Assembly (NCBI GenBank): GCA_000091205.1
Contig: AP006502.2
Reading direction: 5' to 3' (one strand)
Length of the DNA stretch: 64,000 bases
Source: Cyanidioschyzon merolae
Taxonomy: Eukaryota
Made by a program: the position numbers and the translations under genes. This document shows, in pieces, positions 29,716 to 64,000 of this stretch. Under the pieces are notes generated by a model. That model was not told the DNA's origin. It saw only the letters and a list, made by a program, of their open reading frames with translations, and searched no databases. Every line of letters starts with the position of its first letter. The first letter of the stretch is position 1.

Positions 29716-30453
29716 CGGTAGCGTCTTGTCGTGGTATGCGGCGTTGCCTCGACTCGTTGTGCGCAGATGCCTTGCGAATATAGGAGCTCAGTGTCAGCGG
29801 AGTTCGGCTGATGGTGAGGCTACGATGCTGCCACGTTTTGGCGTGACAGCAGAAGGAACGGACGCAGCATCGCGCGTGCTGCTGGATTCCGAGCTGTGAA
29901 CTCTGGAACACCTGTGCCAGCACCCCCGTTTCATTTTGGATCGTTTGTCTCCCCGCAATTCAACAGCAGGATTTGTATCCTGTAGACGGCAGGGAGGTTG
30001 CCGAAAATCGTTATACTGTCACTGCAAGCATTCGAAAAAAATGACGTTGACGAGTACGTCATGTTGCTCTCAGCAGGTGATTGAACTTGTCTTCTCGTTG
30101 TGTTCATTCGGAAGGTTGTGTATTCATGCTAGAACTTTCCATAGTCTATCCACACAAATGTCTCTTCGTGAGTTGATTTCAGCGCGTAGTTTCTCTGAGA
30201 TTTACAACCGGAGTACCCAGAAGATAAGAATTTTTCACACGGGTGATCTGGACGGTGTCAAAGAGACAATGATAAACACAGAAAAGAAGCGCGCTTCTGT
30301 CAGCGACGGCCTCCGGTTCAGCAATACGACATCGAGCACGCACTGAAACGCAAACCCGAATGATAGTTGGCACTGGTTTTCGCCTCAGTCGATGAGTCTT
30401 TATCGGGAATGACTGATTCATCTGTATACGGGTATTCAAAGGGAGACAACCTG

Positions 30454-37893: not shown

Positions 37894-37901
37894 TATATAA
37901 G
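37894..37901 (+). promoter_or_regulatory. TATA box (TATATAAG) of Fanzor-like copy 2
   Basis: Same motif and spacing as in copy 1. Confidence 0.35.
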
Positions 37902-37955
37902 AGGAGCGTTCAAAGAGGGTTCTTTTTCAAAAAAAAAAACTAAACAAGGAAAGTT

Positions 37956-40239: not shown

Positions 40240-40385
40240 GGCGCGGGTCACGCGCCACTACTATACTTCCGACCGCAGCAACGTTTGGTGGGTGAAGGCA
40301 GCACGCCTCATTTCGAGTGCTGTGCTCGAGTTTATACCCCAGCTGCGGGAACTTTTGCGGATAGCCATTTCTCGCCAAGTGTCTC

Positions 40386-42828: not shown

Positions 42829-45486
42829 CTAGCTCAGCGAGCGTTCAAAATCCGGCTCTGTGGAGATGAACAGATCCATGAGGTTGCTGCCGCCAACGCC
42901 ACCGCTGCTGCTGTTGCCACAGATAGCTCTATCCCGAGTATGGTCCAGGAGAAGGCTCTCAACAGCCAGATCCTGAAGCAAGGGCGGCGACGGGCTTCGA
43001 GTGAGCGCTCCTCCGCTAACACAAGCCAACATACCACTAAAGCTACCGTCAAGCTCGTAATCTAAATGAAGCCCAGCGCCAACAGCACCTCGTCGAAATG
43101 GCGAGAAGCGTTGCACGCCGTCGATGAGCGGCGACGCGTACGGTGATGATGCTCGCCGAAGTTTAAGCGTCCCGCCCGGAGACACCGTTCCCGGGTGCAG
43201 CGTTTCTCCGCGTTCCTGTTGACGTCGAAGATTCAGCACTTCGCCATGAAAATCATCGACAGCATCCTCGCCAACGGCATGCAGGTGCTTGTACCTCGGA
43301 GGCGTAGTGTGGCCCTCTGGATCCGGAGCCCCGTACGCAACGTGCTCGGGTCGTGTCCGGTCGTCGACGTCGTCGCCCACGAAACGCGTCCGCAACGCCA
43401 CTGGTGATGCATCACGCCGCTCTGTGTTAAGTCGGGCAATACGCACGCCATGCTGACATGGAGCCGCGGACGACGCAGCGCCGGCAACTGCTGCCGATGC
43501 GACGGCGCTTGCGCTGCCGTTGCTGCGCTTTCCTGGGCCTCCCTGGCGAGCATTCGCAGCTGCTGTGTACATGAATGCTGCACTGGATTGCTCAATGGTA
43601 ACCGTCGTCGCGATGCTAGTGGCACTGCTTGCGTCAAGCGATGTCCTGATTCCTGGTTCCCGACAAACACTTCGCATGGGGAACGGTCGAATGCCGTCAT
43701 GTCCGGCCGAAGGCATCGTTGCCAACCCGCCGCCAGCCGTTGCCGCGAAGGACAAACGTGTCGGTGAGCTGCCGCTCGGTGCCATACATCGCAACGGCGA
43801 CGCCAGTTCGACAATACCATCCACCGCTTCGAGCGTGCGGCTGCTCCCGGTCGGCGATGCTGGAATGCTGAGCGGGGCTCCCGAGCCCCACGACGCGTAC
43901 GACTGCGCGGGTGCTTCGAACTCCTCGATGTCGGCACGCAGGGCCGCTTCATCGAAAGCAGAGGCCTCCACATCTGCATTGCAATCACGATTGTTCGCTA
44001 GTTGCGTATCAAACGTCAGGGCGGCTATTGGATTATGGCCCCGATCAGGCAATGCCGCCTGCAGACTGTTGTAAATCGCTGCTTCCGCTCCAAGTTTCTG
44101 TGGCGCAGCAGCCCGCCACGGGGCTGCATTTGCATCTGGCGGCACTCGGGGGTCTTTTTTGTGTGCCCGCCTGCGCAGCGCTGGTACCCAGGAGCCGTCA
44201 GCGACGTCCATGCCGTTGCGCTCTGCAACGGGCGCGCGTTCATTGCAAATCCGAGCCCGATCCGGTCCATTGCTTTGCAAAGAAAGATTCGATGTGAGCG
44301 CTGCACCTGCATGTCGTCGATGCTCTCCACCAATGCCGGCACTGAGCAGGTAACACTCGATCGCACCACCGCTCGAACGCACATGCAACTGGTAAACGAC
44401 CGCCTTGGAGGCTCGGTTTCTTGCTTTGGGATCGTCTCCCCAGAGTAACTCGGTTCCTGGGGGCGCTTGCACTGCGATAACCATGTGTTTCTGAAAAATC
44501 GACAAAGACAGAATATCTTCATCAGTCAGATAAGCATAGCGCATGACTTTCTCGGACGTACTCAAACGACGTAGATCGTCGCGCAGGATGCGAATCTGTT
44601 CATCAAGTAGACGGTCCGACTTCTCCAACTCGAGAATCTCCTCGCGCAGACGAAGGATCTCCTGGTCTGCAGCCAAGTCGACACCGCAGACAACGGCGTT
44701 TCCGTCGGTAGTGAGCCCTGCACGTTGGACGGTCGCTGTTTCGGTCTTGGCAGGTGCCTCCCCGGACGCGTCACGATTCACAGCAGCTAGTGCGGTCTTG
44801 CGGGTGCCGGGGTTCCCAGCAGCGGATTCTCCCATTCCTTTCCATCGGATGTGGTTCTTGCCTTGTTTCTCGATGATCCCGACGCCCTCAAGCACATTGG
44901 TAATGTCATATATCCGTCGCTTCTTCACACCCAAGCGTTCCGCTACTGCGTTCAAATCCAGTAAACCGTCGTCCGTTTTAAAGACTAGATCGAGAAACCG
45001 GCGCGTCAGCTTGAAGAGCGAGCAATCCTGACGACAACCGCTGCGCCGTTTCGCGACCTTGGCCCCCGACGCTCCTCCGCTGCTGGTACGCGGCGTGCGC
45101 CCCAGGTCCAGCTCGTCCTCCTGAAAACGATCGTCTGGCGAGCTACTGAGTCCATCGTTCGGGGAACGAGCCTGCAACGGAGCGTCCGCACCGCCAAGCA
45201 AGGCCGACGTTACGGGCGACGTCAAACAGGTCTCACTATCGAGCAGCGGGCGACCCAGCCAACGCTTGACGGGAGTCGTCGCCGACTCACTCAGCTCCAA
45301 GGTGCCATGACGACCAGAGCCTCCGTCGGTTTTCGAAGTAGACCGCGACTGCCGGCCGCGCGGCCTCGCCGTACTCGCGCTCGGAAGCGCATCGTCGAGG
45401 ACGGGCGAGAACTCCACACTCCCCCGAGGATAGAGCGTCGATCGCCGGCTGCGCGCCTCGGGCGTAGCGGCAGCAGATTCGCTCAT
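42829..45486 (-). CDS. E2F: E2F-family transcription factor
   Basis: Winged-helix DNA-binding domain LTRRFLDLVFKTDDGLLDLNAVAERLGVKKRRIYDITNVLEGVGIIEKQGKNHIRWKG. This is followed by a leucine-zipper-like coiled coil and a marked-box-like region. Both ends are long and low-complexity. Confidence 0.7.
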   Translation of the reverse strand: MSESAAATPEARSRRSTLYPRGSVEFSPVLDDALPSASTARPRGRQSRSTSKTDGGSGRHGTLELSESATTPVKRWLGRPLLDSETCLTSPVTSALLGGADAPLQARSPNDGLSSSPDDRFQEDELDLGRTPRTSSGGASGAKVAKRRSGCRQDCSLFKLTRRFLDLVFKTDDGLLDLNAVAERLGVKKRRIYDITNVLEGVGIIEKQGKNHIRWKGMGESAAGNPGTRKTALAAVNRDASGEAPAKTETATVQRAGLTTDGNAVVCGVDLAADQEILRLREEILELEKSDRLLDEQIRILRDDLRRLSTSEKVMRYAYLTDEDILSLSIFQKHMVIAVQAPPGTELLWGDDPKARNRASKAVVYQLHVRSSGGAIECYLLSAGIGGEHRRHAGAALTSNLSLQSNGPDRARICNERAPVAERNGMDVADGSWVPALRRRAHKKDPRVPPDANAAPWRAAAPQKLGAEAAIYNSLQAALPDRGHNPIAALTFDTQLANNRDCNADVEASAFDEAALRADIEEFEAPAQSYASWGSGAPLSIPASPTGSSRTLEAVDGIVELASPLRCMAPSGSSPTRLSFAATAGGGLATMPSAGHDGIRPFPMRSVCREPGIRTSLDASSATSIATTVTIEQSSAAFMYTAAANARQGGPGKRSNGSASAVASAAVAGAASSAAPCQHGVRIARLNTERRDASPVALRTRFVGDDVDDRTRPEHVAYGAPDPEGHTTPPRYKHLHAVGEDAVDDFHGEVLNLRRQQERGETLHPGTVSPGGTLKLRRASSPYASPLIDGVQRFSPFRRGAVGAGLHLDYELDGSFSGMLACVSGGALTRSPSPPLLQDLAVESLLLDHTRDRAICGNSSSGGVGGSNLMDLFISTEPDFERSLS

Positions 45487-46187
45487 GTGTTCCGGTTAAC
45501 GAGCAACAGCCCGGTAAACAGTTAGCGTCTAGGTTGTGCACCTGCACAATAAGCGACTCAATCGTGCACACACACACACACACGCAAACACACCGCGCAC
45601 CAGGGCACTGTATCGCAGGCAGACCCTCCGTGGAGCACGCAAAATGTAACGGCCTTGCGGGAGCACGTCACACACGTGCTGCCGCCAGATGTGTACCGAG
45701 GCGGCGCTCCGACGAACGCCGCGCGCAGATCATCCGCCACCGAAGGCGGCAACGGCGATGCAGCGTATCGACGCTTCGATGCACGCATCGCCGCCAATTT
45801 CCCGCGCTTTCGCTACGTGGCGCCGCGCGTCACGAGTTTCGTTACTGCAGCGGGCGAGCGGGCGCGCGTGCGCCTGCCCTACAGCGTGTGTCCGTGCTCT
45901 GGGAAGGATCGATGGCGGTTTCCCGCTTGCTTTACGCTCGGATCATGGGATGCACGATCGCGTCGATCTTGACCGTTGATACGCGAGCAGTGCATGAACG
46001 GACACGTGTCCGCTGTATGGAGCGCTACAGAGGCACGGCGTCGATACCGATGCATGCACACTGGAATCGCGTGCGTGTGCGTGCCACCTGGCGCTGCATG
46101 CAGCGGACACGTGTTCGTTTGGGCATATCCCTACGTCATCGCCTTGGCGTTCGGCGCTGCGAGCATTCGCCCGTCGAAGGCGATGAC

Positions 46188-47972
46188 TCAGCGGTATCGC
46201 TGACGCTTCACCGGACGCATGTCCGCGAGGCAACGGTTTGGATCCAGGCTCTGGAGAGGCCCGTCACGGCGATAGGATGCCTTGCGTACCGACGCTACAG
46301 ATACCGGTGTGGTGGCCTCAATAGCGGGGACCGGGATGAGTTGCGCGGCTGCCGGTACACGGAGACGGCATTGCAGAGCAGCGCTATCACCAGTGCCGAT
46401 GTGCCTCTCTGCGCTCAGCGGCGGGTGCGAGCTCGCCCAGAATCCCGTCAAGCCACTGTTATCGCACGGGCGTAGTAGGAACCAGCGCTTCTTCGATGTC
46501 GCATGCTGATGTCCGCGTTCGTCGAGCTCCGAAGCCACAACCGTGGCCGTCTCCAGGGCGCATGTCACGGTGCTTCCGGGGCGGTAGAGAAGCTGGCGGA
46601 GGAGGTCTCGTAGTCGACAACGCAGGTTATGCAAATCATCGTCTAATTCAGAGCTGATGTTTGCAAGATCTTCCAGTTGTCTTTCGAGATGCGCGCGCTG
46701 CGCACGAGCGCCTGTCGCTGCGCTCAGCAGTCGGCTCGGGGTCAGACTTCGTAAACGAATGCGCATCGAGGGTGTTTTGTAGTTACCGCCGCGCGCTTCT
46801 CGCTCGAGAATGCCGATCGCCTCGAGCACGCTGATGACGTCGTAGATTCGACGAGGAGCTACCTTCAACGCTGTCGCTAAGCTCGAGCACGTCTGGTGCT
46901 CGGCGTACGATGCTTTTCCTTCGGCCTGCGGAGCAAACAGTCCCAGCAAATGCGCCGTCAGAAATCCAATGCTCCGCGCATAGCGACCCGAGGTACGTGG
47001 CGAGTCTGGGTGGCAATCCTCACCGGTCGCAGGACCTGATCCATGCAAATGCTGGTCATGCGGTCGCGGGTGGTACGGGTGGAAATGCTTCAGCAGAAAC
47101 GATGGATTGGTCATAAGGATTCCGATATCTATATCGGGGTGTGCAGCGTACGGGCTCGACGGCGTGTCTGCCGCCGCGGCGCTCGGCGATGCCTGTTCCG
47201 CCACGGATGCTGCAATGCACTGCCGCACCGTGAGTTGCTCGGATGCGACGTTCCTGCGGCCGAGCGTCTGCTTTTCTCGGGCCCCTGAAGCTTCGTACAA
47301 CGCATCCATCAGAGAGCGGGGTTGCAGCGGTTGGTGCTCTGTTCCACGGATTGGGCGGCGAGGTTGTGGTCGTCGTCCTGGCGATCCAGCGCTCGGCGCG
47401 TTCAGAACTGTATCGCCTCTGTCCGCAGCGAGTCGATCAATCTGCTCGGTGCACCAGCCCGGCCACTCTTTGTCGGGTGCCTGCCCCAGGCACGCTCTCA
47501 GCGTCGGTGAAAATGCCGATACGCCGAGCGGCGAACTCGACACGCCCTGCGACATACGCCGATAAGACACCGGCGTCTTCGGAATATCTGGGCTCACATA
47601 CCACAGAAAACTCTCAATGCCCCCGAATGAACACGGACTCTGGGGAACAGCCGTTGCTTGCGTCACTGGTCGGGCCGGTGCGACCGCACTGCCGCTGTCT
47701 GTGGCCTCGACAGCTCGAAAGCGACTATTCCTCGACCAGGGTATGAGGTCATGTGGTGACCACTCTGAAAGCGGCAGCCACGGCGGTGCTCCTCTGGAGG
47801 TCGGCTCGGGTGAGGCGGCCCGCGTCCGCCCAGCGGCTCCGTCAGCAAGTGCTTGGCTTGGTGTATCGGGGTGTTCCTTGGCGACGCGTTGCGCGTTGCC
47901 CGCGCTAGCCACGCGCTCGGGGAAAGCGGCCACCTCATCGCATAAGAGCGCTTTCCAGTCGATGTCGTCCAT
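46188..47972 (-). CDS. second E2F-family-like winged-helix protein (tandem paralogue, more divergent)
   Basis: SGRYARSIGFLTAHLLGLF....SLATALKVAPRRIYDVISVLEAIGILEREARGGNYK, then the coiled coil LERQLEDLANISSELDDDLHNLRCRLRDLL. Confidence 0.5.
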   Translation of the reverse strand: MDDIDWKALLCDEVAAFPERVASAGNAQRVAKEHPDTPSQALADGAAGRTRAASPEPTSRGAPPWLPLSEWSPHDLIPWSRNSRFRAVEATDSGSAVAPARPVTQATAVPQSPCSFGGIESFLWYVSPDIPKTPVSYRRMSQGVSSSPLGVSAFSPTLRACLGQAPDKEWPGWCTEQIDRLAADRGDTVLNAPSAGSPGRRPQPRRPIRGTEHQPLQPRSLMDALYEASGAREKQTLGRRNVASEQLTVRQCIAASVAEQASPSAAAADTPSSPYAAHPDIDIGILMTNPSFLLKHFHPYHPRPHDQHLHGSGPATGEDCHPDSPRTSGRYARSIGFLTAHLLGLFAPQAEGKASYAEHQTCSSLATALKVAPRRIYDVISVLEAIGILEREARGGNYKTPSMRIRLRSLTPSRLLSAATGARAQRAHLERQLEDLANISSELDDDLHNLRCRLRDLLRQLLYRPGSTVTCALETATVVASELDERGHQHATSKKRWFLLRPCDNSGLTGFWASSHPPLSAERHIGTGDSAALQCRLRVPAAAQLIPVPAIEATTPVSVASVRKASYRRDGPLQSLDPNRCLADMRPVKRQRYR

Positions 47973-52282: not shown

Positions 52283-53222
52283 ATGAACACCAGCAGCAAC
52301 AGCAGCAGCAGCAGCATCAAGGCGAAGTGCACCTGACTGGGGCGATGCGCTGCGACCCCGAGCACCGCATCGTCGGTGACTGGGTCCTTGACGCAGAGCG
52401 ACGCAAGCATACGAACTGTTAGCATCCGGGGAGGGAGCGCTCTGTTTGTCAATACGTGGGCGCAAGTATGTTGTTCCGTTGCAAATGGACAGGGAACGGG
52501 TTAAGGGCACACAATAGAAACACAGCTAAAGGGCTCGAACCATTTGTGTGGTTCCTTGGCAACGCCAGGGACTCGAGGTTCAGCACAAGTGACGCTTGCG
52601 CTCGTTGCCAATCAGTTCACCGACCGGGACTGGGTATCTCGGGGGACCCTCAAAGCGCCCCAGTAACCGGCAGACTCGACGCGACGTATCGGGATCGTAA
52701 AAGACTCGCAACCGGGAACGCGTATACAGTACACTCGCCCGAACCGCTGGACGTTGATTCCGATCTTTTTTTCACCCGTACGCCAACATAGTTCCGCGCA
52801 AGTTTCTACAGCGTTTCTCATGGCACCAAAGTTTTCAAAGCACGGCTCCTGGCGAGGTTTCCGCAAAACACAACTGCAGGCCGTCGAAAGGTGGCAGGGC
52901 GACAGAGACCTGTTGCCTTTCGGGTGCCAGCATACCGTGCTTCATATACCTGCCATGAAACCTGTAGAGCCTCTTGGTCAGATACGGGTCCCATACGCCC
53001 GTCCAGCTCCGCATGTAACAATAATCAGAACACGAATCGTGTATCTGTTTAGCGAACGCAGAAAAGCAATGCAAAAACGCATCGCATCGCTGCCGCTGCC
53101 AAGCCAAATCTCCAACAGTACCGCCCGGGTACGGAGTTCAGGTCGCTGTACTCGAGGCAACACTGCCGAGCGGGTCTGCGCTCTCTACGAAAACCAACAA
53201 CCCATTCATCCGCTACGCGAAT

Positions 53223-55031
53223 GTGCTGAACCAGTACGCGTTAGAGATAACGTGTTTCATGCGGCCTTTCGGTTCCGTTCGTCTTTGGCGAGGAGCTGCT
53301 GCGTTCCCGCTAGCCGCGTGGTTGCCAGCGTTCGCTACACGGCGGCTAGCTTCGTCACAGTCGCGAAACCTTGCCGAGCCTCCCAAACAACCCGTTAACG
53401 CTAACCAGGTCTTACAGAATGAATATGAACGTTTAATGGTACTGGCAGAGCAAGGAGGCGGACCCAGTGCCCGCAAGCGTCACCAGGCACGGGGCAAGCT
53501 ACTGGTGCGGGAGCGCCTCGCTGCGCTGCTCGACCCGGGCTCGCCGTTCCTCGAGCTGAGCGCTCTCGCTGGAGCTGGCGACTACGTGTATGCAGGTGCC
53601 CCGGATGACGACAGCGAGACGAAAATGCCGCCAGGAGCAGGACTCTTAACCGGTATAGGTCTCGTAGCCGAACGCTGGTGCATGATCATTGCGAACGACG
53701 CAACGGTTAAAGGCGGTACCTACTTTCCGCTGACGGTGAAGAAGCACCTTCGTGCACAAGAAATCGCTGCGGAAAATCGTTTGCCCTGTATCTATCTAGC
53801 AGACTCGGGTGGTGCCTATCTCCCGTTGCAGCATCGAGTTTTCCCCGATCGTGATCACTTTGGTCGAATCTTTTACAATCAAGCTCGAATGAGTCGGGAT
53901 GGCATCCTGCAGATCGCAGCAGTGCTCGGCAGCTGCACTGCTGGCGGTGCATACGTTCCAGCCATGTCCGATGAGGCGATCATGGTGCACGGCACGGGGA
54001 CGATTTTCCTGGGAGGACCTCCGCTCGTGAAGGCGGCTATCGGCGAGGACGTGTCCGCGGAGGAACTCGGTGGAGCGCTGGTACACACCCAGCAGAGCGG
54101 TGTCGCCGATCATCTCGTGGAGAACGACGCTGAGGCGCTGCTGCGAGTGCGAGCAGCGGTGAAGCGGCGAGCGCTGCCAGCGCGCCAGGCCTCTACCAGC
54201 CCCCTGATGGAGTCCTTTCCGGCACCGCGAGCGTCGATAGGGGATCTAGAGCGTACCCTCGTTGGGGAAAACCCTCGAGCTGACGAATCAAGCGCCCGTC
54301 TTATCGGTGGAGCTGGTGCTGGTGGTCTGGATATGTATCAACTGATCGCATGCCTGGTGGACGGCTCCGTCTTTGATGAATTCAAGGCGCAATACGGAAC
54401 AACGCTGGTAACTGGCTTTGCGAGCATCTATGGTCAACAGGTGGGCCTTGTCGGGAATCAGGGGGTGCTCGTGAGTGATGCGGCGAAGAAAGGGACGCAT
54501 TTCATCCAGTTATGCGAGCAGCAGGGTATCCCGCTTGTATTTCTACAAAACATCAGCGGTTTCATGGTTGGAAAGCAGGCCGAGTGGGGCGGTATCGCCA
54601 AGGACGGCGCCAAAATGGTCAATGCCGTAGCGTGTGTTCGCGTTCCGAAGATCACCGTCATTGTTGGTTCCAGCTACGGAGCCGGCAATTACGGTATGTG
54701 TGGGCGTGCGTATGGGCCTCGTTTCCTTTTCACTTGGCCCAGTGCCCGAATTGGAGTCATGGGCAGCGAGCAGGCCGCTAACGTTCTCCGTCAGGTGCAG
54801 GGGGGGCGTTCCGATCCGGCGGCGGAGGCAGGTATCAACGCCCTAACCAAGCGCTACGCGTTCGAGAACAGTGCCTGGTTTGCAACAGCGAACCTCTGGG
54901 ACGACGGTGTCGTTTTACCACGCGACACACGGCAGGTCCTGGGCATTGCACTGCGAGTCGTGGAGTCGGCATCTGAAACGGAAACCTCAGTAACTGCACA
55001 ACGGGGTCGCTACGGCGTCTTCCGCATGTAA
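53223..55031 (+). CDS. MCCB: 3-methylcrotonyl-CoA carboxylase beta subunit (carboxyltransferase), mitochondrial
   Basis: [28 protein letters not shown]...[76 protein letters not shown]...[20 protein letters not shown] is near-identical to animal MCCC2 through the core. An RRLASS presequence precedes it. Confidence 0.9.
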
Positions 55032-55860
55032 ACCCTTGGCCTCGTAGTGGCACGAATCCTGTCCCCGGAGGCGCCTTGTCGCGTCGTGGGTCAGCGCCCA
55101 TCCGCTGCTCTCCATGGCATAGAATCGATGCTGAGAGCCGGATTATCGCCGAGTTCGCGAACGCTGCTGGTTATCGAGGCACCCATCGCAAGAGTCTTCC
55201 GGGAAGGCTACTGCATTCCACCGCCTCCAGTGCAGTGTTTTCGCATAGAAGCGAACTTGCATCGATCATCCCCGTGACCCTCTTACGCCAACGAGAAAGC
55301 GCACATGCATATGAATGCGGATGTGCCTACGGGGAGCATCGGCAACATCCAGCTAGCCGATACCTCTCTTCGAGTCATTTGCTTGATGATCGTCGACCAA
55401 GGAGCGGGGAAACCACCACCATGATGTGGTATGCGGGAGACGCTCACGCGAATCCAGTGCCCCGGAGAGCGTTTGCCAACTATTGCGGTGCACCAGCAGT
55501 GATTGCCACCCGGAAATAGCGCTTCGCTCTGTGACTTGCGTGCAGTGCGCGAACCTAAGCTCTTCGTTTCTGAATCATGAGCACTACTTTTCGCACCAGT
55601 CGTTACAGCGCGCTTGCAGACGACAGCACCGCATTCGAAGCATCACTTTACCGGGTTTTTCGTCGAAAGCATGCATCCAGCAGTTGTCGTATCTCGCGAG
55701 AAGATTCACCAGGGCGCCTCGCACATATCAGGGTACGATACCACGGCAGTTTTTCACGCTTTACATTCGCATATATTCGAGGTTTTATCTGGCCGGTGTC
55801 AAGTCTGGTTATCGCCGGTCCACTTGGGAGACGTCCAGCGCATTCGTGCTTGCGCTCTGC

Positions 55861-57762
55861 TCACTTGGTTGCATGCGATGCCTCGTAGAGTTCACGCCCG
55901 ATCAATATCCGGCGAATCTCGCTCGTCCCTGCCCCGATTTCATAGAGTTTCGCATCTCGCAACAGCCGACCCGTTGGGTAATCCGAGATGTACCCGTTTC
56001 CACCGAGCGCTTGGATAGCTTGCAATGCACACTGCGTTGCACGCTCCGCATTCTGGAGAATCACAGAAGCGCAGTCCTTGCGAAAGCGACGCAGCTGGGG
56101 ATTCAGGCCGCCGTGCTTGCTGCTCGCAGGAGGCGTAGGCTCGCCTATTTGCCTCGTGAGTTTGTCCACCGATGCCGCAACGCCAAAGGTATGCGCCCGA
56201 CTCGCTGCTAATGCCCCGTACATATCCGCAAGCTTTGCTTGCATCAATGGAAAGGTGCCAATGGGGCTACCGAATTGTTGACGTTCACGAACGTACGGCA
56301 AAACGACATCCAAACAGGCCTGCATAATACCGAGCGGTCCTGCGCTCAGCACCAACCGCTCTGCATCCAAACCGGCCATGAGAACAGTGGTGCCAAGGCC
56401 GGGCTCACCAAGGACCGCGTCATCCGGCACCCAGACGTCATCGAAGACGAGTTCGCAGGTATTACTCCCGCGCATACCCAACTTGTCTAGTTTCTGTGCA
56501 ACGCGATATCGCGGACCCAGCTGCGCCGTCTCCAGCACAAACGCCGTGAGTTTCGGCTTGCTCTGCTTGGGTAGCGACGAACTCGAAGCGCTCTCCACCG
56601 CCGCCAGTGTCGATGTCGATGCGGAGTGCGACTCCAGCTCCGGGGTTCGCGCATACACCACGACTACATCGGCATCGGGGCCGTTCGTAATCCACATTTT
56701 CGTTCCCCGAATACTCCATCCTGAACGCAACTCTCCGGCGGCAGTAGTACGCTTGCGCTGATAAGCGCTCGTTCGCATGGAGCCAAGGACATCAGAGCCA
56801 GCGCCTGTTTCGCTCATGGCTAGCGCACCGACCCAGACGCCGCTGCACAGAGGCGGCAAAAGTCGCTCCTTCTGAGCAGCGCTACCATGTCGCTCTATCT
56901 GCATCATACAGAGATTCGAATGCGCTCCATAGGAGAGCCCGATACTCGGTGATGCTCGACTTAGCTCTTCCATGACGAGACAATGCTCGACGAGGCCTAA
57001 ACCGAGTCCGCCATAGGCGTTTGCAGTCGCCACACCGAGCACACCAAGGTTGCCCAGTTCTGTCCAGAGTTGCTCACGTGGAAAGCGGTTTGCTTCGTCG
57101 ATAGCGGCAGCGTAGGGTGCAATGTACTCGTGCGCGAAAGCACGAACGGTGTTCCGTAGTCCCGAGCGATCCGAGTCCAGCACGGTGCCGAGGAGAACCT
57201 CGTCGGCATGCGTATGCCGCCCGTCGTAGTAAGTGGGTCCAGGGGCGGTCCACCAAGCGCTGGTGGACGGTGCGCTCGCCGAGTGTGCCGAAGCGGGTCC
57301 CGCTGACGCGACAGTGCTTTGCGGCGGTAGCGACGATGATGATGATGAGGATGATGATGAGGATGATACCTCGCGTCGAAAGCGCTTCCCTGGCGACAAG
57401 ACCCCCGTTCGTTCACGGTTCCGCTGCAGCCCAGACGGCAACGGCACCTCGAGTCGCGTCACTGAAGCAACTGCACCCACTTGTTCACGTTTTAGCGCAT
57501 GCTCCACCGTACAATACCCGTGCTGGCGAGAGAAAACGCGCAGCGGTGTCCGCGCGTCCGGGCACACCTCAGTGTAGCGTTCGCGAGACTCAAAGCGCCA
57601 CTCGCTCCCCGTCCTATGGTCTGCAATGCAGCCGCAGACACAGTCACCGGGATACCACTTGCGTGCGTGGTGGTAGCAGCACCGCCACCAGAGCCGCGAA
57701 AGCACGTCACTGTGCTTGGGGGCTTCACGAAAGCCAAACGCTCGGCCAAGCCAAAGCATCAC
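55861..57762 (-). CDS. IVD: isovaleryl-CoA dehydrogenase (acyl-CoA dehydrogenase family), with a long low-complexity N-terminal extension
   Basis: LGNLGVLGVATANAYGGLGLGLVEHCLVMEELSRASPSIGLSYGAHSNLCMMQIERHGSAAQKERLLPPLCSGVWVGALAMSETGAGSDV matches IVD, including the GALAMSE..GSDV block. The C-terminal ACAD helical domain is present. A poly-Ser tract is encoded by (GAT/GAG)n at 57332-57367. Confidence 0.85.
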   Translation of the reverse strand: MMLWLGRAFGFREAPKHSDVLSRLWWRCCYHHARKWYPGDCVCGCIADHRTGSEWRFESRERYTEVCPDARTPLRVFSRQHGYCTVEHALKREQVGAVASVTRLEVPLPSGLQRNRERTGVLSPGKRFRREVSSSSSSSSSSSSLPPQSTVASAGPASAHSASAPSTSAWWTAPGPTYYDGRHTHADEVLLGTVLDSDRSGLRNTVRAFAHEYIAPYAAAIDEANRFPREQLWTELGNLGVLGVATANAYGGLGLGLVEHCLVMEELSRASPSIGLSYGAHSNLCMMQIERHGSAAQKERLLPPLCSGVWVGALAMSETGAGSDVLGSMRTSAYQRKRTTAAGELRSGWSIRGTKMWITNGPDADVVVVYARTPELESHSASTSTLAAVESASSSSLPKQSKPKLTAFVLETAQLGPRYRVAQKLDKLGMRGSNTCELVFDDVWVPDDAVLGEPGLGTTVLMAGLDAERLVLSAGPLGIMQACLDVVLPYVRERQQFGSPIGTFPLMQAKLADMYGALAASRAHTFGVAASVDKLTRQIGEPTPPASSKHGGLNPQLRRFRKDCASVILQNAERATQCALQAIQALGGNGYISDYPTGRLLRDAKLYEIGAGTSEIRRILIGRELYEASHATK

Positions 57763-58166
57763 AAAGCCAAAAGCCTTTCCACGTCACAAGCCCGCAAACC
57801 TGTACACACGAAACACCTGTTCAGTCACACACTGGGAGTCAACGACGCTTCCAGGGCACTGCACACGAACACACACCCTAGACGAGCAGGCGGGTACGGG
57901 TGCTTGCGGTTGTCCAGGGCGTCGCTGGGCGCTGAACGTGCCAGCGCAGGCAAGGCCGTTTCTGCCAGGCCAGATACAGGAAATCGCGGCATCGATCTCC
58001 CGCGTATGCCCCGTCGAATCGACAGGCAGGAGAAAGCACGCCTTGTTCGACAAGCGAGGTCCCTTAGGCGTGTACCGACACGCGCACACTGGATACGTAC
58101 TCGTAAAGGCCTTGGAGTGGTCGTGTTTGAAAGCTCCTGGAGCGGGGAACCACAAGTCGGCGTGGT

Positions 58167-60920
58167 ATGAACTCGGCAGCAATAGCACTTGACGCTGTTT
58201 TTATAGCGAACCGAGGCGATGCCGCACTCCGAGTCATTCGTACGGCGAAACGACTTGGACTCGTGACAGCGGTAGCTTGCACTCGCGCTGAACTCGTGCG
58301 ACCCACAGCAGCGGTCGACGCTGCCGACTACGCTGTGGAACTCGACGGGGCACTGCCCGCCGCTGGTCCAGCCACAGCGCCCTACGTCGACGTGGAACGC
58401 GTCGTACTGGCAGCGGAACGCTTCCGAGAGCGACTCCTGGAACGTAAACCTGATGCTCGCAAGTCGGTATCCGCTCTGCAGGTGGCGGTGCATCCAGGCT
58501 GGGGGTTTCTTTCGGAGCGCTCCGACTTTGCGAACGCTGTGCTGGAGCGCGGCTTCCGGTGGTGCGGGCCGTCGGCACACGCCATGCAGGCCATGGGCGA
58601 GAAGGTGTCTGCGCGGGAGACCATGTCCAAGGCGGCGGTACCTGTGGTGCCCGGCCTGCGTCTCGCTCAGGTAGCGTCGCAGTCAACGGAGGTGCAACGC
58701 CTCGGAGAGATGCTCGTAAGCCAGGTCGGCTTTCCGCTCATCCTCAAACCTGTTTACGGCGGCGGTGGCAAAGGCATGCGCGTTGTACGACATCCCAGCG
58801 AGCTGCCGCGTGCGCTGCAGGCCGCTCGCCGCGAAGCACGTATCGCATGTGGCGATGATACGCTCCTGGCGGAGCGATACCTCGAATCTGTTCGCCACAT
58901 TGAATTTCAGATATTCGGAGGCTATCGGGATGGAGCCTACGAAGCCGTGCATCTTTACGAACGCGACTGCTCTGTGCAGCGACGTCATCAGAAGATCGTG
59001 GAGGAGTCACCGGCCCCTGGTCTGCCGGTCGCTACCCGCGAAAAAATGGCCCAGTGTGCGGTGCGAGCCGCCCGGGCCGTCGCCTACGAGGGCGCTGGCA
59101 CCGTCGAGTTCCTCTATGATCCCGTCCGGGAGGATTTCTTCTTCATGGAGATGAATACGCGCCTGCAGGTAGAGCATCCGGTCACCGAGATGATCGTGCG
59201 CACCAGGCCCCTGAACGTCGGCACGCTCCAGAACAGCAGAAGGACGCTGGACGGGAGCCCCGGAGACCGGTCGGAGGCCGCCCCAGTGGACCTTGTCGAG
59301 TGGCAGTTTCGCGTTGCTGCTGGCGAGCCGCTCCCAGTTGCCAGTCAGGATGCGCTCTCGATTCGTGAACCAGCACATGCGATGGAGTTGCGTGTGTACG
59401 CTGAAACACCCGATGAACAGGGCAACTGGCTGCCCCAGCAAGGCCGTCTGGAGCGGTTCGCGATCGACGGTCTCGATATCGAACAGCACATGCCAACGGA
59501 TACGCTTCGTGTTGATGCAGGTATCCGCACCGGGGACGAAGTCTCTATCGAGTTCGATCCGATGATTGCGAAAATCATTGTGTGTGAACCGGAACGCCCC
59601 CAGAGCATTTCAGCGTTGCAACGGCTGCTCGAATCGAGTCAAATATGGGGTGTTTCGACGAATGTTCCTTTTTTGCAGGCTTTACTCGCCGACGAAGAGT
59701 TCCTGCATGGAGTAGGTGGACGTGGTCACGGTGTTCCGGTTACCTGGTTGGAGCACCGCTTGCCGTTGCTGCTATCGCGTACCGTCTCCGCGGGTGCAGT
59801 GCGGTCGGAAACCGCACCGCCGGGGACGCGATCGGTGTTGGAAACATCCAGCACGCTGCAAGGCGCCTCTTTGGAGACATATGCATCTGCACGAGAGACG
59901 CAGAAGCGTCCCGATGAACAGGGATGTCCTCTGGACCTCGAGAGTCGTGGCGACGGGAGCGATGTCGCCCGACTTGCCTCGTCTGCAGTGCCGGTGTGGA
60001 GAGCGCTGGCGGCAACCGCCTGGGCTGCTACCGAGCCCTACTGGCTGCTGAGTCGACCTTTCGGCGGCTTTCGTAATGATGGACGCGGCAATCGATTCGA
60101 ATGGTACCTGGAGTACCCGGTGCTGCAGCAGATGCAGCAGCGAGCACCATTGCAGCGACCTACAAACGAGTCGATGCTTCCGTCGTTCTACCGAGCGCTG
60201 CTTCGACTGGGGCGTGCACCCGCTACCGTTTGTTTCTTTCCGAGCGCTGCGGATGCTGCGCCCCGAACCGGCCTGGAAAATCACCCCGAGCGCGATGATC
60301 TTCTCGACTGGGTAGTGGAAATACAACAGGTCTGGCCGGCTGCCTCAGAGTCAGCTGTTGTGCCTTTGACGCTCTATCCGGATGAACGACTCGCGATCGA
60401 CGGTGTGGTCGCTCCGGTTGACGCGTATTGTGTGGAGGCGCCTTTGGAAGCGACCGATCATGAAGAGCTAGCCCCGCAGTGGTGCTTTCGCCTCGCGGAC
60501 GGGACAATTGTTCGCGTCCATACACCGCTCTCTTTCGCGCTGTGGCGTCTCGGGAGGCGGGAACTTACCAGCACCAGCACCAGCACCAGCGCCAGCACCA
60601 GAGTAGCACAAGCGGAGACCGGGTTGCATCGCCGTCCGGCAGGCAAAGCCGCTGTCGAGTCGCTCCCGGGTCAGGTGCTGAGTCCCATGCCCGGTCGACT
60701 CCTGGAACTCCTCGTGCAGAAGGGCCAAATGGTGCATCACGGGGAGCCACTCGCTATTCTCGAAGCCATGAAAATGGAGCATACGGTTCGAGCACCCATG
60801 GATGGCGTCGTGACTCGTGTCACAGAGCTTCCGTGTGGTGCTTATATGCCCGCTGGTACGTTTCTCTGCATGCTGCGGGATCTGCGGAAGGAGCCTTCTG
60901 AACAAGCAGACAAGGTTTGA
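58167..60920 (+). CDS. MCCA: 3-methylcrotonyl-CoA carboxylase alpha subunit (biotin carboxylase + BCCP domain)
   Basis: ATP-grasp core GFPLILKPVYGGGGKGMRVV. Then ERDCSVQRRHQKIVEESPAP..GAGTVEFLYD...FFFMEMNTRLQVEHPVTEMI, and FDPMIAKIIV. The C-terminal biotinyl domain has EAMKMEH. Several lineage-specific insertions include a (CACCAG)n-encoded TSTSTSAST stretch at 60567-60600. Confidence 0.9.
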   Translation: MNSAAIALDAVFIANRGDAALRVIRTAKRLGLVTAVACTRAELVRPTAAVDAADYAVELDGALPAAGPATAPYVDVERVVLAAERFRERLLERKPDARKSVSALQVAVHPGWGFLSERSDFANAVLERGFRWCGPSAHAMQAMGEKVSARETMSKAAVPVVPGLRLAQVASQSTEVQRLGEMLVSQVGFPLILKPVYGGGGKGMRVVRHPSELPRALQAARREARIACGDDTLLAERYLESVRHIEFQIFGGYRDGAYEAVHLYERDCSVQRRHQKIVEESPAPGLPVATREKMAQCAVRAARAVAYEGAGTVEFLYDPVREDFFFMEMNTRLQVEHPVTEMIVRTRPLNVGTLQNSRRTLDGSPGDRSEAAPVDLVEWQFRVAAGEPLPVASQDALSIREPAHAMELRVYAETPDEQGNWLPQQGRLERFAIDGLDIEQHMPTDTLRVDAGIRTGDEVSIEFDPMIAKIIVCEPERPQSISALQRLLESSQIWGVSTNVPFLQALLADEEFLHGVGGRGHGVPVTWLEHRLPLLLSRTVSAGAVRSETAPPGTRSVLETSSTLQGASLETYASARETQKRPDEQGCPLDLESRGDGSDVARLASSAVPVWRALAATAWAATEPYWLLSRPFGGFRNDGRGNRFEWYLEYPVLQQMQQRAPLQRPTNESMLPSFYRALLRLGRAPATVCFFPSAADAAPRTGLENHPERDDLLDWVVEIQQVWPAASESAVVPLTLYPDERLAIDGVVAPVDAYCVEAPLEATDHEELAPQWCFRLADGTIVRVHTPLSFALWRLGRRELTSTSTSTSASTRVAQAETGLHRRPAGKAAVESLPGQVLSPMPGRLLELLVQKGQMVHHGEPLAILEAMKMEHTVRAPMDGVVTRVTELPCGAYMPAGTFLCMLRDLRKEPSEQADKV

Positions 60921-62485
60921 ATCATCTCTTGCGGAGCACTGGACCTATTTTGGTAGCGATAGCGCGACGTGAACTTGTGCTTTGGCTGCTTGCTGCAGCT
61001 GCATTCGTTACGGGCTGTGCACAGCGGCAGATGCCTTCGAGAAACGTATGGCGCACGGTAATGAAACCTGAGCGCACTGCAACATACCCGGAGCTGCTTG
61101 TAGAGCGTACAGCCACTGCAGCAGCTGGTTGATCCGGAGAAAACAGTTTCCAGTTGCATTGCGGATTGCAGGGCGCTGCATCCATCGCAGGGAAGAGTGA
61201 AATGGGGTTCCCTCGGCTGACTCGGGGACACACGTATTCGTAAGGTTAGGGTCTTTTTCACTAGCCATTAGACTGAGCCTACACGCGCTTTTTCTTCAGT
61301 GACTGCTCCCTTTTCCTCTCTGTTTTGAATCAGGATTTACGCGTGCCGGTCTCCGATGTCCATCAAGGTCCGTTGTCAGCCGTAGAACGGTATTCACGGG
61401 AGTGTTCGGGTCCCGGTAGCGCCGCTTTCGGCTGTTGTCGACGCATTTCACTCACAGGAGGTAGTTGCCATCTAGGCTACGCTTGCCATGTTCACCTTTT
61501 TTATGGACAGCCTCGGGGCGCGCTTCGCACCCGTGACACTTGTGCATGCTCGGGTTGGCGCTTACGTTCATAAGACCCCTCGCTTCCAAGGGCCGTTCCG
61601 TGAAGTGCGAGCGCTTCCCTCGCCACGCTTTCATGGTCCTTGACGAGTGCAGAACATTCCGCTCCATACTCTGTATTGTTCCCGCGCCTGATGCCGTACC
61701 CTACCGTCACGGGCTTCTTCTTGGCGTTGTCGTCTGCATGGGGGCTCTCCGCTGGATTGCCCGCACACGCTGTACAGTTCGATAGAAGATCTGTTGAACG
61801 CGAGCGTGTTCATCATAGAACGAGTATCCCAAGGAACATCCAGACAGGAGCCCAAGTCGATAAATTCCAAATTGTCTACACTTCTTTCATGCAAAGCGAT
61901 GATGAACGCTCGACTCGAGGTTATCGCTGCGATGACTACATTCCGATTCAACGATCCCTTTCCATGCAGATACAACAGAATAGACGAAAGCTTTAGCGAG
62001 CATGTCCCGTGCCGCGATCCACCATGTCGTCAAAGATCGTTTCTTCGATGACCATAAAGAGAAGAGTAAGAGTGTCCCACACGTAATATATTATTTGACG
62101 TGAAACGTTTCTTATGGTCTCTGCTTCAGCTTGTGAACGAGTCGACAACGGACCAGGTCGACTTACTTTTCCGATCCAAGCTCCGGGCGCGTAACGCTTC
62201 GCCCCGCGAGTCGCCTTGAAACAGAAAGACAAAAAACCTGACGCATGCGTGATATGGGTATGCTGTAGGCGAGTACGGAAGGCGGGAGCCTAGAGGCTCG
62301 AACGTTTGAATTTGAAAACGATGCTGGTTATTTCACCAGCCATTGGTCGAGGGCACCGCGACTCACGTTGATTCTGTTACTTGATGAATCCCAGCAGCAA
62401 AGAGTCTACGGAGCCAGCCCCGAAAACATGACCAAGTATCCTGAAATGACGTTTGAGTCCGTAATCTCCTGATGCTGCACTTGGA

Positions 62486-63529
62486 ATGTCGAGCTTGTCA
62501 TTCTGTAAACAAAAGTTTCGAAGAAAAATCTCAGGATTCGACCAAAACGCGTATCTCGTAATTCCGTGGCAATCTGCCACGTCAAGAAGGTGCCTCGTTT
62601 CACTGGACTCCGCAGGAAGCGGTTGCTTTCAACCGCGCCCTAGCAACGGGATGCGACCTCTCACTCGTTTGGCTCGGTTTTGGCACAGAGGCTTCTGCGA
62701 GAAACGAACCTCACTGGTGCTTTGGAATGAACCCATAGAGCGTACCGTTGTCTTGACCCTGAACCGGCCGGAACGAGCAAACGCGCTTAGCGCCGAACTT
62801 GTCGAAGAGCTCAGAACGCACCTGCACCGCGTGCTCGAGCTGGCCTCTGCTCGTCCGGTGCGGTGTGTGATGCTTATTCTGGCATCAGCGCATGAACGCA
62901 TATTCTCTGCTGGTGCGGACTTGAAGCAACGAGCAGCCCAGAGCCCTGACCAGCAGCGCGACTTTACGCGAAGACTGCGCGAAACGCTGCAAAGCCTCGC
63001 AAAGTTGCCGTGCTTCACTGCTGCAGCGCTCCGTGGTGGTGCCTACGGAGGTGGACTCGAACTTGCCCTCGCGTGCGACTTTCGAATCGTTCAGGAGGGC
63101 GCGATCCTGGCACTTCCAGAAACTGGACTAGGAATTTTACCGGGAGCGGGCGGCACCCAACGACTTCCGCGACTCATAGGCGTTTCTCGGGCGAAGGAAG
63201 TCATCCTTCTGGGCCGTCGACTTGACGCCCGACAGGCACACCACTACGGACTCGTTAATGTGGTCGTTCCAGATGCCGATGCGGGAACAGCGGCAACGGA
63301 CAACACCCTGGAGGAAGCGCTGCAACTGGCTGCTTCTCTGCGGGAGCGCAGTCCGATGGCGCTCCAGTTGGCGAAACGAGCGATCGATGAGGGTATAGAT
63401 GCGAGTTCACTCGCCCGCGGTCTAGCGATCGAGGACAGCTGTTATGCGGAGACGTTTGGAACCAAGGATCGAGCAGAGGGTCTGCAAGCGTTTGTTGAAA
63501 AACGATCTCCGCGGTTTACCGGTGAATAA
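62486..63529 (+). CDS. AUH: methylglutaconyl-CoA hydratase (AUH-like enoyl-CoA hydratase/crotonase)
   Basis: VVLTLNRPERANALS..IFSAGADLKQRA..LPCFTAAALRGGAYGGGLELALACDFRIV..LPETGLGILPGAGGTQRLPRLIG..AKEVILLGRRLDARQA matches the crotonase fold. The C-terminus IEDSCYAETFGTKDRAEGLQAFVEKRSPRFTGE parallels animal AUH (..[29 protein letters not shown]). Confidence 0.85.
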   Translation: MSSLSFCKQKFRRKISGFDQNAYLVIPWQSATSRRCLVSLDSAGSGCFQPRPSNGMRPLTRLARFWHRGFCEKRTSLVLWNEPIERTVVLTLNRPERANALSAELVEELRTHLHRVLELASARPVRCVMLILASAHERIFSAGADLKQRAAQSPDQQRDFTRRLRETLQSLAKLPCFTAAALRGGAYGGGLELALACDFRIVQEGAILALPETGLGILPGAGGTQRLPRLIGVSRAKEVILLGRRLDARQAHHYGLVNVVVPDADAGTAATDNTLEEALQLAASLRERSPMALQLAKRAIDEGIDASSLARGLAIEDSCYAETFGTKDRAEGLQAFVEKRSPRFTGE

Positions 63530-64000
63530 GGGATGAGCTGGGATAACCAGAGGGGTTTTCTTCTCCGGTTGTAGCAGCGCACGTGCATGGCGACGCATGC
63601 GAATGCCCTGGTTCTTGTCTGGGAAGCGTACACGTCGGGCGCCCAGCGCTGCACTCGGTAGATTCGCAAGTCGTTTGGGCAACTTTTCATCCATTGGGGG
63701 CGTACCACTCCAGAATTCCTTCGTTTACGGTCGTCGCGGGTGCGTCTAGGAACGTGGTGTGTGATAGCGTGGCCCACATATCCGCATCTGAACGCGAACC
63801 CTCTTGTGTGGCTGTTGGGGAGCGCTCCCGTTCTCGGTGGCGTGCGCGCTTCTTCGCAGCATCAGAGGCTGTCGATGTATTTGCGTCGCGGGCTGGGAAC
63901 GACTGCTCCTTACATCCGAAGCGCGTAGGCGTGGCATCTTTAGAGGAGCACTCACAGGTTTTCAACTGCGAGTCCTAGTCTCGAGAAGAGACGCGATAGC

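Follow-up and report, generated by a model that had tools for sequence, protein, structure and literature searches.

One of the closest described counterparts of the locus reported here is the leucine-catabolism cluster of Aspergillus nidulans, made up of ivdA (AN4688), mccB (AN4687) and mccA (AN4690); like the red-algal block, it is a eukaryotic nuclear cluster that encodes isovaleryl-CoA dehydrogenase (IVD) and both subunits of 3-methylcrotonyl-CoA carboxylase (MCC) as separate transcription units of a mitochondrial catabolic pathway (PMC4117967). Partial clustering in filamentous fungi had been mentioned in an earlier reading made from the letters of the DNA alone. The two hosts belong to unrelated lineages, Archaeplastida and fungi, and Cyanidioschyzon merolae, whose habitat is the hot spring, is an obligate photoautotroph and not a saprotroph. 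The red-algal block furthermore adds an AUH-type hydratase as a separate fourth gene, whereas we take the A. nidulans hydratase to be fused to the lyase in hlyA, located elsewhere. The fungal genes are said to be leucine-induced, reportedly in work by Rodriguez et al. in J Biol Chem in 2004.

Among bacteria, the liu operon of Pseudomonas aeruginosa (liuRABCDE) and the Bacillus yng cluster likewise hold the four enzyme functions side by side, and P. aeruginosa MCC (3u9r, 3u9s) is among the PDB homologues. In bacteria the genes run in one direction, are polycistronic and include HMG-CoA lyase (liuE in the liu operon) and a regulator, whereas the algal genes lie on both strands (+, -, +, +) with spacers of 829, 407 and 1565 bp, and the algal proteins have eukaryotic targeting regions and low-complexity insertions. 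The algal block has neither a lyase nor a linked regulator, and it was not classed as a liu-type operon; no HMGL-like domain turned up among the larger open reading frames scanned in the window (the whole 64-kb stretch of DNA analyzed), in the 9.5 kb downstream or beside the cluster in relatives. Neighbor-joining trees of the MCC beta subunit (MCCB) and IVD gave no bacterial sister group. Within algae, C. merolae included, nitrate-assimilation clusters combine a nitrate transporter, SiRB/NiR and NR, so that the compact C. merolae genome holds another cluster of primary-metabolism genes, one also known from other algae (PMC4620153); these are assimilatory, widely discussed and MYB1-regulated, whereas the leucine block is catabolic.

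The window belongs to chromosome 20 of C. merolae 10D, and the region lies inside the finished 1.62-Mb chromosome. All four open reading frames that the sequence-only reading had assigned to leucine catabolism were recovered in place, with Pfam and structure matches confirming the enzymes, and they correspond to the annotated genes CMT071C to CMT074C, whose identifiers are consecutive and which span 10.3 kb. The supplement of Mori et al. 2016 gives matching lengths (590, 632, 917, and 347 aa) and primer sequences for CMT071C, CMT072C, CMT073C, and CMT074C, and the GenBank proteins BAM83090, BAM83092, and BAM83093 are exact matches to window reading frames. The first ATG places the real starts of MCCB (590 aa) and IVD (632 aa) at 53259 and 57759. 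The features are as follows.

53259..55031, plus strand: CMT071C, 3-methylcrotonyl-CoA carboxylase beta (carboxyltransferase) subunit, 590 aa (Pfam, PDB, exact match to BAM83090.1)
55032..55860, no strand: MCCB/IVD convergent (tail-to-tail) spacer, 829 bp, non-coding, no Pfam-positive reading frame
55861..57759, minus strand: CMT072C, isovaleryl-CoA dehydrogenase, 632 aa (Pfam, PDB, motifs)
57760..58166, no strand: IVD/MCCA divergent intergenic region, 407 bp, candidate bidirectional promoter (head-to-head arrangement)
58167..60920, plus strand: CMT073C, 3-methylcrotonyl-CoA carboxylase alpha (biotin carboxylase and BCCP) subunit (MCCA), 917 aa (Pfam, PDB, BAM83092.1)
60921..62485, no strand: MCCA/hydratase spacer, 1.5 kb, non-coding, reading frames without Pfam match
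62486..63529, plus strand: CMT074C, AUH-type enoyl-CoA hydratase, presumed 3-methylglutaconyl-CoA hydratase, 347 aa (Pfam, PDB, BAM83093.1)

Together these genes cover the part of leucine breakdown that leads from isovaleryl-CoA to HMG-CoA: IVD oxidizes isovaleryl-CoA, the 3-methylcrotonyl-CoA so formed is carboxylated to 3-methylglutaconyl-CoA by the biotin enzyme MCC (alpha and beta), and the AUH-type hydratase would hydrate the latter to HMG-CoA. The four families are distinct (acyl-CoA dehydrogenase, carboxyltransferase, biotin carboxylase with BCCP, and crotonase) and cover three consecutive reactions. We judged the block by an operational definition of the eukaryotic metabolic gene cluster, and it contains, as that definition has it, at least three non-homologous enzyme genes of one pathway. 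Its members have consecutive identifiers with no unrelated genes between them, the spacers showing no Pfam matches, RNA genes or conservation. All four genes were already annotated, and none of the papers found describes the cluster; it adds one real, if modest, example to its kind. The proposal of a genuine eukaryotic nuclear cluster in a plastid-bearing lineage holds, the host being the red alga C. merolae.

For the beta subunit CMT071C, the match to Carboxyl_trans (PF01039, E 9e-133) is accompanied by scores against PDB structures of 568-604 bits for MCC beta versus 243 for PCC beta, placing it closer to MCC than to PCC carboxyltransferases. The alpha subunit CMT073C, 100% identical to BAM83092.1, has the domains Biotin_carb_N, CPSase_L_D2, Biotin_carb_C, and Biotin_lipoyl and carries the EAMKM biotinylation motif, although its margin for human MCC alpha over PCC alpha is modest (357 vs 316 bits). 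Its middle region is expanded and strongly diverged, which fits the absence of the BT-domain family PF21139 from the listings for Cyanidiales alpha subunits. In CMT072C, with Acyl-CoA_dh_N/M/1 domains, IVD structures score 390-435 bits and the next acyl-CoA dehydrogenase 210, and C. merolae, L001, and L003 all share LDAERLVL and YEIGAGTSEIRR, motifs of the IVD type. We take the catalytic Glu of IVD to lie on helix G (the human E254 position), with Gly/Ala at the position of the MCAD catalytic Glu; both the motifs and the structure scores of CMT072C agree with this.

Mitochondrial-type presequences had been noted on all four proteins. CMT071C has an R-rich N-terminal presequence and CMT072C an extension of about 150-190 aa that is poorly conserved and includes poly-Ser. 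CMT073C, by contrast, has no N-terminal extension: in every lineage the biotin-carboxylase domain of MCC alpha begins near residue 9, and an in-frame stop lies 13 codons upstream. According to published fusions, the N-termini of all three nevertheless direct GFP to mitochondria: the first 33 aa of CMT071C, 151 aa of CMT072C, and, despite the missing extension, 45 aa of CMT073C (Mori et al. 2016).

The fourth protein is less straightforward. CMT074C (an exact match to BAM83093.1) matches ECH_1 at 3.5e-57 and scores 209 bits against 3kqf, 195 against human AUH, and 129 against human ECHS1; it has a crotonase fold with two catalytic glutamates and is nearer to AUH than to ECHS1, although its margin over other crotonases is modest (195-209 vs 175-180 bits) and its NCBIfam match falls below the cut-off. 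The two catalytic-Glu motifs, GGGLELALACD and PETGLGILPGAGGTQRL, can be aligned with human AUH, as can the C-terminus, which had been described from the letters as AUH-like. JGI gives near-identical versions of 292 aa the name "methylglutaconyl-CoA hydratase". Were translation to start instead at 62651 (M56), the protein would have the same length, 292 aa, with an R-rich N-terminus resembling a mitochondrial presequence, and since the Cyanidiococcus orthologue is unable to encode the first 55 residues of the C. merolae model, this comparison suggests M56 as the true start. TargetP predicts a mitochondrial location, whereas in the only published test GFP fused to the first 98 residues of the 347-aa model went to the plastid (Mori et al. 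2016). Given the presequence-like N-terminus that follows M56, that construct may have carried non-native sequence; we treat both the substrate and a shared compartment with IVD and MCC as candidate assignments. Human AUH binds AU-rich RNA through a lysine-rich helix (K105, K109, K113). The aligned segment of CMT074C reads ANALSAELVEELRTHLHRV and contains no lysines, a finding that speaks against AU-rich RNA binding, and its GenBank name "AU-specific RNA-binding" is homology transfer only.

A survey of related genomes, which the sequence-only reading had called for, found the four-gene block in Cyanidiococcus yangmingshanensis, in Cyanidium caldarium, and in a Cyanidium-like metagenome contig, with order and orientation unchanged and with 50-73% identity between the proteins of C. 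merolae and its relatives; the lineage-specific insertions noted from the C. merolae proteins are present and common to relatives. Around IVD, no such block was present in Galdieria, Porphyridium, or the sister lineage L011, nor did MCC alpha have it beside it in the haptophyte Prymnesium. On this distribution the cluster is a derived trait of the Cyanidiales in the narrow sense, and the findings in Galdieria and Porphyridium point to separate origins of the algal and fungal clusters. The block would have formed once the Galdieria lineage had split off, in the common ancestor of Cyanidium, Cyanidiococcus, and Cyanidioschyzon, with relocation of resident genes as the most likely route. It should be kept in mind that conservation among these genera is weak evidence for selection, as 86% of their genes are collinear (PMC9812998).

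The genes form separate eukaryotic transcription units, with MCCB and IVD convergent, IVD and MCCA divergent over about 0.4 kb, and the hydratase gene following MCCA on the same strand. Every Cyanidiales locus examined retains the head-to-head IVD/MCCA pair, and its shared intergenic region may act as a bidirectional promoter. It holds the 8-mer GCCAGATA (57969-57976), which is common to the orthologous regions in L001 and L010 against 0.027 such matches expected from shuffles, a weak signal. The shorter motif CCAGATA was not enriched across the window, and no motif of at least nine bases was common to the three promoter regions. In the MCCB/IVD spacer we found no tRNA or Rfam match and nothing similar to relatives at the DNA or the translated level, and the MCCA/hydratase spacer, which measures only about 0.23-0.29 kb in Cyanidium, similarly showed no RNA genes and no conservation with relatives.

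A conserved leucine-catabolism cluster with coordinated expression is, in our assessment, the probable explanation of these observations. The block would give coordinated expression of enzymes for consecutive acyl-CoA intermediates, the co-regulation of the four genes being suggested by the divergent 0.4-kb region between IVD and MCC alpha, and selection may have maintained it. There is a real, if minor, chance that the adjacency is instead neutral, a single rearrangement in a small gene-dense genome retained by the stable gene order of the Cyanidiales and implying neither co-regulation nor selective benefit. The 86% collinearity of the genera (PMC9812998) accords with this, as do the SAP-domain gene likewise kept beside MCCB in all three, the want of a strong common promoter motif, and the unconserved spacers. 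However, in a genome of about 4,800 genes the four named ones would fall in a row by chance with a probability of about 2e-10, which a generous correction for many pathways raises to roughly 1e-5 to 1e-6, and the same three genes (mccA, mccB, ivdA) cluster independently in A. nidulans, a recurrence hard to explain by drift. Acquisition of a bacterial liu-type operon by horizontal gene transfer (HGT), with promoters, targeting sequences, insertions, and inversions added later, we consider very unlikely. Outside the Cyanidiales, MCCA and MCCB find their best database matches in bacteria, their top 120 matches include no protein from Galdieria or Porphyridium, and about 1% of Cyanidiales genes are HGT-derived (PMC6629376). 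Yet in the neighbor-joining trees none of the sampled bacterial clades encloses the MCCB or the IVD clade of the Cyanidiales (bootstraps: Chloroflexi-like clade 100%, actinobacterial clade 100%, beta/gamma-proteobacterial clade 87%), and the ranking of IVD homologues follows red-algal phylogeny. Order and orientation also differ from the co-directional liuABCDE, lyase and regulator are missing, composition is fully native, and the cluster genes go unmentioned in the main text of the HGT survey of Cyanidiales.

It is also conceivable, though unlikely, that the functional cluster comprises MCCB, IVD, and MCCA only, with CMT074C an unrelated neighbor, a general short-chain enoyl-CoA hydratase of the plastid or of beta-oxidation. 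Mori et al. 2016 class it as an ECHS1-type beta-oxidation enzyme (ECH), and the plastidial fusion, the modest crotonase margin, and the NCBIfam score point the same way; however, CMK139C already provides a second, canonical ECH for beta-oxidation, and the much closer match to AUH with its AUH-like C-terminus, the JGI naming, the suggested M56 start with its bearing on the GFP construct, the conserved adjacency, and the short Cyanidium spacer all favor a four-gene cluster. Bacterial contamination or mis-assembly, for which operon-like gene content alone would speak, has next to no probability and is already refuted. The region sits within a finished chromosome, the arrangement is repeated in independent assemblies and metagenomes of three genera, and E2F, DP, and SAP-domain genes flank it. 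The cluster genes show GC3 of 0.55-0.63 and codon-frequency correlations of 0.71-0.85, the same as in 12 flanking genes, so that the DNA is not a contaminant, as the sequence-only reading had already maintained.

HMG-CoA lyase, the last enzyme of the pathway, is unlinked to the cluster. It had been suggested to lie just beyond the window end, and none was found in the next 9.5 kb (contigs 99.2% identical) nor beside the cluster in relatives; the larger reading frames scanned in the 64-kb window likewise gave no HMGL-like domain. The downstream stretch instead encodes a DegP-like protease, a DUF3119 protein, an OTU protein, and an M28/TFR peptidase. This flank varies by lineage, with DegP in one and DP/E2F in the other: in Cyanidium, the DP and E2F genes come next after the block. 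On the opposite side, a SAP-domain gene adjoins MCCB in all three genera.

Leucine breakdown from isovaleryl-CoA to HMG-CoA proceeds through IVD, then MCC (alpha and beta), then an AUH-type hydratase, and in C. merolae the genes for all of these lie side by side. The four open reading frames (ORFs) called for this block by the sequence-only reading were all recovered in place, with the Pfam domains and spacers listed here.

53259-55031 (+), ORF 1, CMT071C, MCC beta (MCCB): carboxyltransferase
829-bp spacer (MCCB-IVD)
55861-57759 (-), ORF 2, CMT072C, isovaleryl-CoA dehydrogenase (IVD): acyl-CoA dehydrogenase
407-bp spacer (IVD-MCCA)
58167-60920 (+), ORF 3, CMT073C, MCC alpha (MCCA): biotin carboxylase and biotinyl-carrier domains
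1565-bp spacer (MCCA-hydratase)
62486-63529 (+), ORF 4, CMT074C, hydratase (ECH): crotonase

Subfamilies were assigned by comparison with solved structures. ORF 1 matched MCC beta subunits at 568-604 bits versus 243 for PCC beta, and ORF 2 matched isovaleryl-CoA dehydrogenases at 390-435 bits versus 210 for the next ACAD; the diagnostic IVD motifs LDAERLVL and YEIGAGTSEIRR are present in the latter. The best match of ORF 3 was human MCC alpha, with a modest margin (357 bits versus 316 for PCC alpha), and its BCCP domain carries EAMKM. ORF 4 matched the Bacillus crotonase 3kqf at 209 bits and human AUH, a 3-methylglutaconyl-CoA hydratase, at 195 bits, versus 129 for human ECHS1; it has the AUH-like C-terminus previously ascribed to it, along with both catalytic-glutamate motifs. 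CMT074C is probably a 3-methylglutaconyl-CoA hydratase and not a generic beta-oxidation hydratase. It lacks the lysines of the RNA-binding helix of human AUH, indicating that its GenBank name, "AU-specific RNA-binding enoyl-CoA hydratase," reflects homology transfer only. NCBIfam returned generic matches for the four proteins and nothing above threshold, which we attribute to a lack of MCC, IVD and MGCH equivalog models suited to eukaryotes.

MCC alpha is 100% identical to C. merolae 10D BAM83092.1, encoded on a 1,621,617-bp record that, from the CMT gene prefix, we take to be chromosome 20; MCC beta, with the ATG at 53259 as its start, exactly matches BAM83090.1, as the hydratase does BAM83093.1. 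In the supplement of Mori et al. 2016 (PMC4928187), CMT071C appears as MCCB (590 aa), CMT072C as IVD (632 aa), CMT073C as MCCA (917 aa) and CMT074C as ECH (347 aa), so that the four genes are consecutive and previously annotated in a finished genome, and the primers of that study agree with the gene starts inferred here. CMT074C was placed there under the beta-oxidation hydratases, and the linkage of the four listed genes was not remarked on.

The block is native to this genome. Its GC, GC3 and codon frequencies are indistinguishable from those of 12 flanking genes, and the flanks code for eukaryotic proteins such as E2F, DP and a SAP-domain protein; with this composition, these flanks and a finished genome, a bacterial contaminant is excluded, as the sequence-only reading had held in arguing against a contaminant operon. 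Given approximately 4,800 genes, the chance of these four being consecutive is about 2e-10, and it stays near 1e-5 to 1e-6 even when every pathway and subset is generously corrected for. The three spacers contain no Pfam-positive ORF and no sequence conserved with relatives, and a search of them for a hidden or degenerate gene found none; no tRNA or Rfam family was detected across 50-64 kb of the window.

To place the block in its evolutionary setting, we compared its neighborhood across red algae, and the synteny check proposed earlier recovered all four genes in Cyanidiococcus and Cyanidium. Two C. merolae-type metagenome contigs (L004 and L005) carry the block at 99.2% identity to window 52640-64000. 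Cyanidiococcus yangmingshanensis encodes SAP, MCCB, IVD, MCCA, ECH, DegP, DUF3119 and OTU in the same order as C. merolae, and a Cyanidiococcus-like assembly (L001) encodes MCCB, IVD and MCCA before its contig ends. The order in Cyanidium caldarium (L008) and in a metagenome contig resembling Cyanidium (L003) is SAP (called in L008 only), MCCB, IVD, MCCA, ECH, DP, E2F and formyltransferase. Protein identity to C. merolae is 60-73% for MCCB, 61-67% for IVD, 50-60% for MCCA and 54% for the hydratase; order and orientation within the block are identical across lineages, and the downstream flank varies by lineage. In Galdieria yellowstonensis and Porphyridium purpureum, the region up to 10 kb from IVD holds no gene for MCCA, MCCB or the hydratase, and in a lineage just outside the three genera (L011, a 3.6-kb contig from Logan SRR31152685) the 5' neighbor of IVD is an IF-2B-family gene and not MCCA. 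MCC alpha of Prymnesium is likewise unlinked to other genes of the cluster. As the block is missing from around all of these genes, the cluster is a derived trait shared by Cyanidium, Cyanidiococcus and Cyanidioschyzon.

The neighborhood itself has been reshuffled. Comparison of window 18433-29715 and 42829-47972 with the two Cyanidium contigs (L003 and L008) showed that SBF, formyltransferase, RLL, amine oxidase, E2F and DP genes are found close to the cluster in C. merolae as well as in Cyanidium, but differ in order and orientation; this indicates several local rearrangements that broke at the block's downstream edge and left the block itself intact.

Phylogenetic analysis bears on where the four genes came from. 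The matches of IVD rank by red-algal phylogeny (Cyanidiococcus 793 bits, Cyanidium 614, a further lineage 561, Galdieria 466 and Porphyridium 464), with bacterial matches following at 456 bits or less. Outside the Cyanidiales, MCCA and MCCB have bacteria as their best matches, with no other red alga among the top 120, which would fit an origin of the block from a transferred bacterial liu-type operon. Such a transfer is nevertheless unlikely: gene order and orientation are unlike those of liu operons in bacteria, a survey of HGT in Cyanidiales makes no mention of these genes in its main text, and in neighbor-joining (NJ) trees (200 bootstrap replicates) MCCB and IVD of the Cyanidiales form long-branch clades of their own, nested in no sampled bacterial clade (bootstrap support 100% for the Chloroflexi-like, 100% for the actinobacterial and 87% for the beta/gamma-proteobacterial clade). 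It should be noted that neither tree settles where the Cyanidiales clades join at depth, the one grouping there, with human MCCB and an alphaproteobacterium, being weak (38%), so that the trees, which had been proposed as a check for joint transfer, give no support to HGT but do not prove vertical descent either. The L011 IVD and an MCCB protein (P0272) from a 2.2-kb Logan contig branch just outside the three genera with 100% bootstrap support, and our guess is that both derive from one organism.

A further reading, to which we give somewhat less than an even chance, is that resident genes for mitochondrial enzymes were relocated after the split from Galdieria into an independently assembled cluster maintained by selection, convergent on the fungal mccA/mccB/ivdA set with the hydratase added. 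Among the three genera 86% of genes are collinear, with little synteny with Galdieria (Cho et al. 2023, PMC9812998), so that conservation of the block is expected without selection too. The proposed mechanism is that the four genes are regulated together to break down leucine, a process that would matter in darkness, during carbon or nitrogen starvation and in protein turnover, roles described in other algae, for instance in PMC7780933. In all lineages with the block IVD and MCCA diverge over a gap of about 0.4 kb, and this intergenic region may serve both as a bidirectional promoter. It contains a GATA-like 8-mer, GCCAGATA (57969-57976), conserved in the corresponding regions of C. merolae, L001 and C. 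yangmingshanensis (L010), against 0.027 such matches expected from shuffles. The 8-mer was not found in the Cyanidium sequences, and its shorter form CCAGATA is not enriched across the window. A k-mer search of three promoter regions found two common 8-mers versus approximately one expected by chance and no common motif of at least nine bases, and support for a shared cis-element is weak.

HMG-CoA lyase had been suggested to lie just beyond the window end, and for the immediate neighborhood this is refuted. No HMGL-like domain was found among the larger ORFs scanned in the 64-kb window; in 99%-identical contigs the 9.5 kb past its end encode a DegP-like protease, DUF3119, an OTU protein and a PA/M28/TFR peptidase, and no HMG-CoA lyase. 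None adjoins the cluster in Cyanidiococcus or Cyanidium.

Mitochondrial-type presequences had been claimed for all four proteins, which holds only in part. The N-terminus of MCCB is R-rich and of a typical presequence kind, and IVD has a poorly conserved N-terminal extension of approximately 150-190 aa, but MCC alpha has none: in all Cyanidiales lineages (L001, L003, L008, L010 and C. merolae) it starts about 8 residues ahead of the biotin-carboxylase domain, and in C. merolae an in-frame stop lies 13 codons upstream of the start (window 58128-58200). In published GFP fusions, N-terminal segments of MCCA (45 aa), MCCB (33 aa) and IVD (151 aa) each directed the reporter to mitochondria (PMC4928187), and the start of the MCC alpha catalytic domain therefore seems to double as a targeting signal. 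For the hydratase, GFP with the first 98 aa of the 347-aa model went to the plastid (PMC4928187), a construct derived from the N-terminal extension of the database model. The Cyanidiococcus orthologue begins at the equivalent of M56 with no Met upstream, and the corresponding 292-aa form is called in many metagenome contigs; in C. merolae this form (start 62651) begins MRPLTRLARFWHRGF, resembling a mitochondrial presequence. Judging from these sequences, the annotated CMT074C start is probably too far upstream by the first 55 codons (62486-62650), with M56 native, and the plastid result may stem from the mis-set start. For the annotation of C. merolae, the points to note are the start codon and compartment of CMT074C and a mitochondrial MCC alpha with no N-terminal extension.

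Primary-metabolism gene clusters are few outside fungi and plants, and whether selection or accident lies behind them is debated, with co-regulation, co-inheritance and avoidance of toxic intermediates as routes by which selection might act. Our analysis supports the core interpretation of the block as a eukaryotic primary-catabolism gene cluster assembled from known genes; the sequence-only reading arrived at the same view, now borne out by the confirmed ORFs, synteny in relatives and native composition. The closest eukaryotic precedent is the ivdA, mccB, mccA cluster of Aspergillus nidulans (PMC4117967), in agreement with the fungal clustering cited earlier; the red-algal block has the same three genes and, unlike it, a separate hydratase gene in addition, and must have arisen independently. 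Bacterial liu operons resemble the block in content only, as it is not co-directional and has no linked lyase or regulator. A nitrate-assimilation cluster is already known in C. merolae (PMC4620153), and our literature search on Cyanidioschyzon found no description of a leucine cluster.

The block repeats part of the Aspergillus gene set with the next enzyme added; its hosts are photoautotrophic red algae, and its origin is datable to after the Galdieria split. Its main appeal is as a counterpart to the fungal cluster that evolved independently and lends itself to experiment: C. merolae has efficient homologous recombination, so that cluster members could be separated, moved or removed to gauge what clustering contributes. 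If selection does maintain the cluster, that would lend weight to the view that linkage of consecutive acyl-CoA-handling steps, with avoidance of toxic intermediates, is a general driver of eukaryotic clustering.

Elsewhere in the window we observed duplications. Two are direct segmental duplications, unusual in a genome regarded as low in redundancy: one of 4.9 kb with 97.9% identity (6902-11828 and 35341-40266), each copy of which holds a 208-aa Nas2_N/PDZ proteasome-chaperone-like ORF (7866-8492 and 36305-36931, both on the minus strand), and one of 2.0 kb with 97.0% identity (13884-15876 and 30385-32377). A tandem duplication of approximately 95 bp with 97.8% identity (20457-20545 and 20552-20640) lies directly downstream of the SBF transporter gene.
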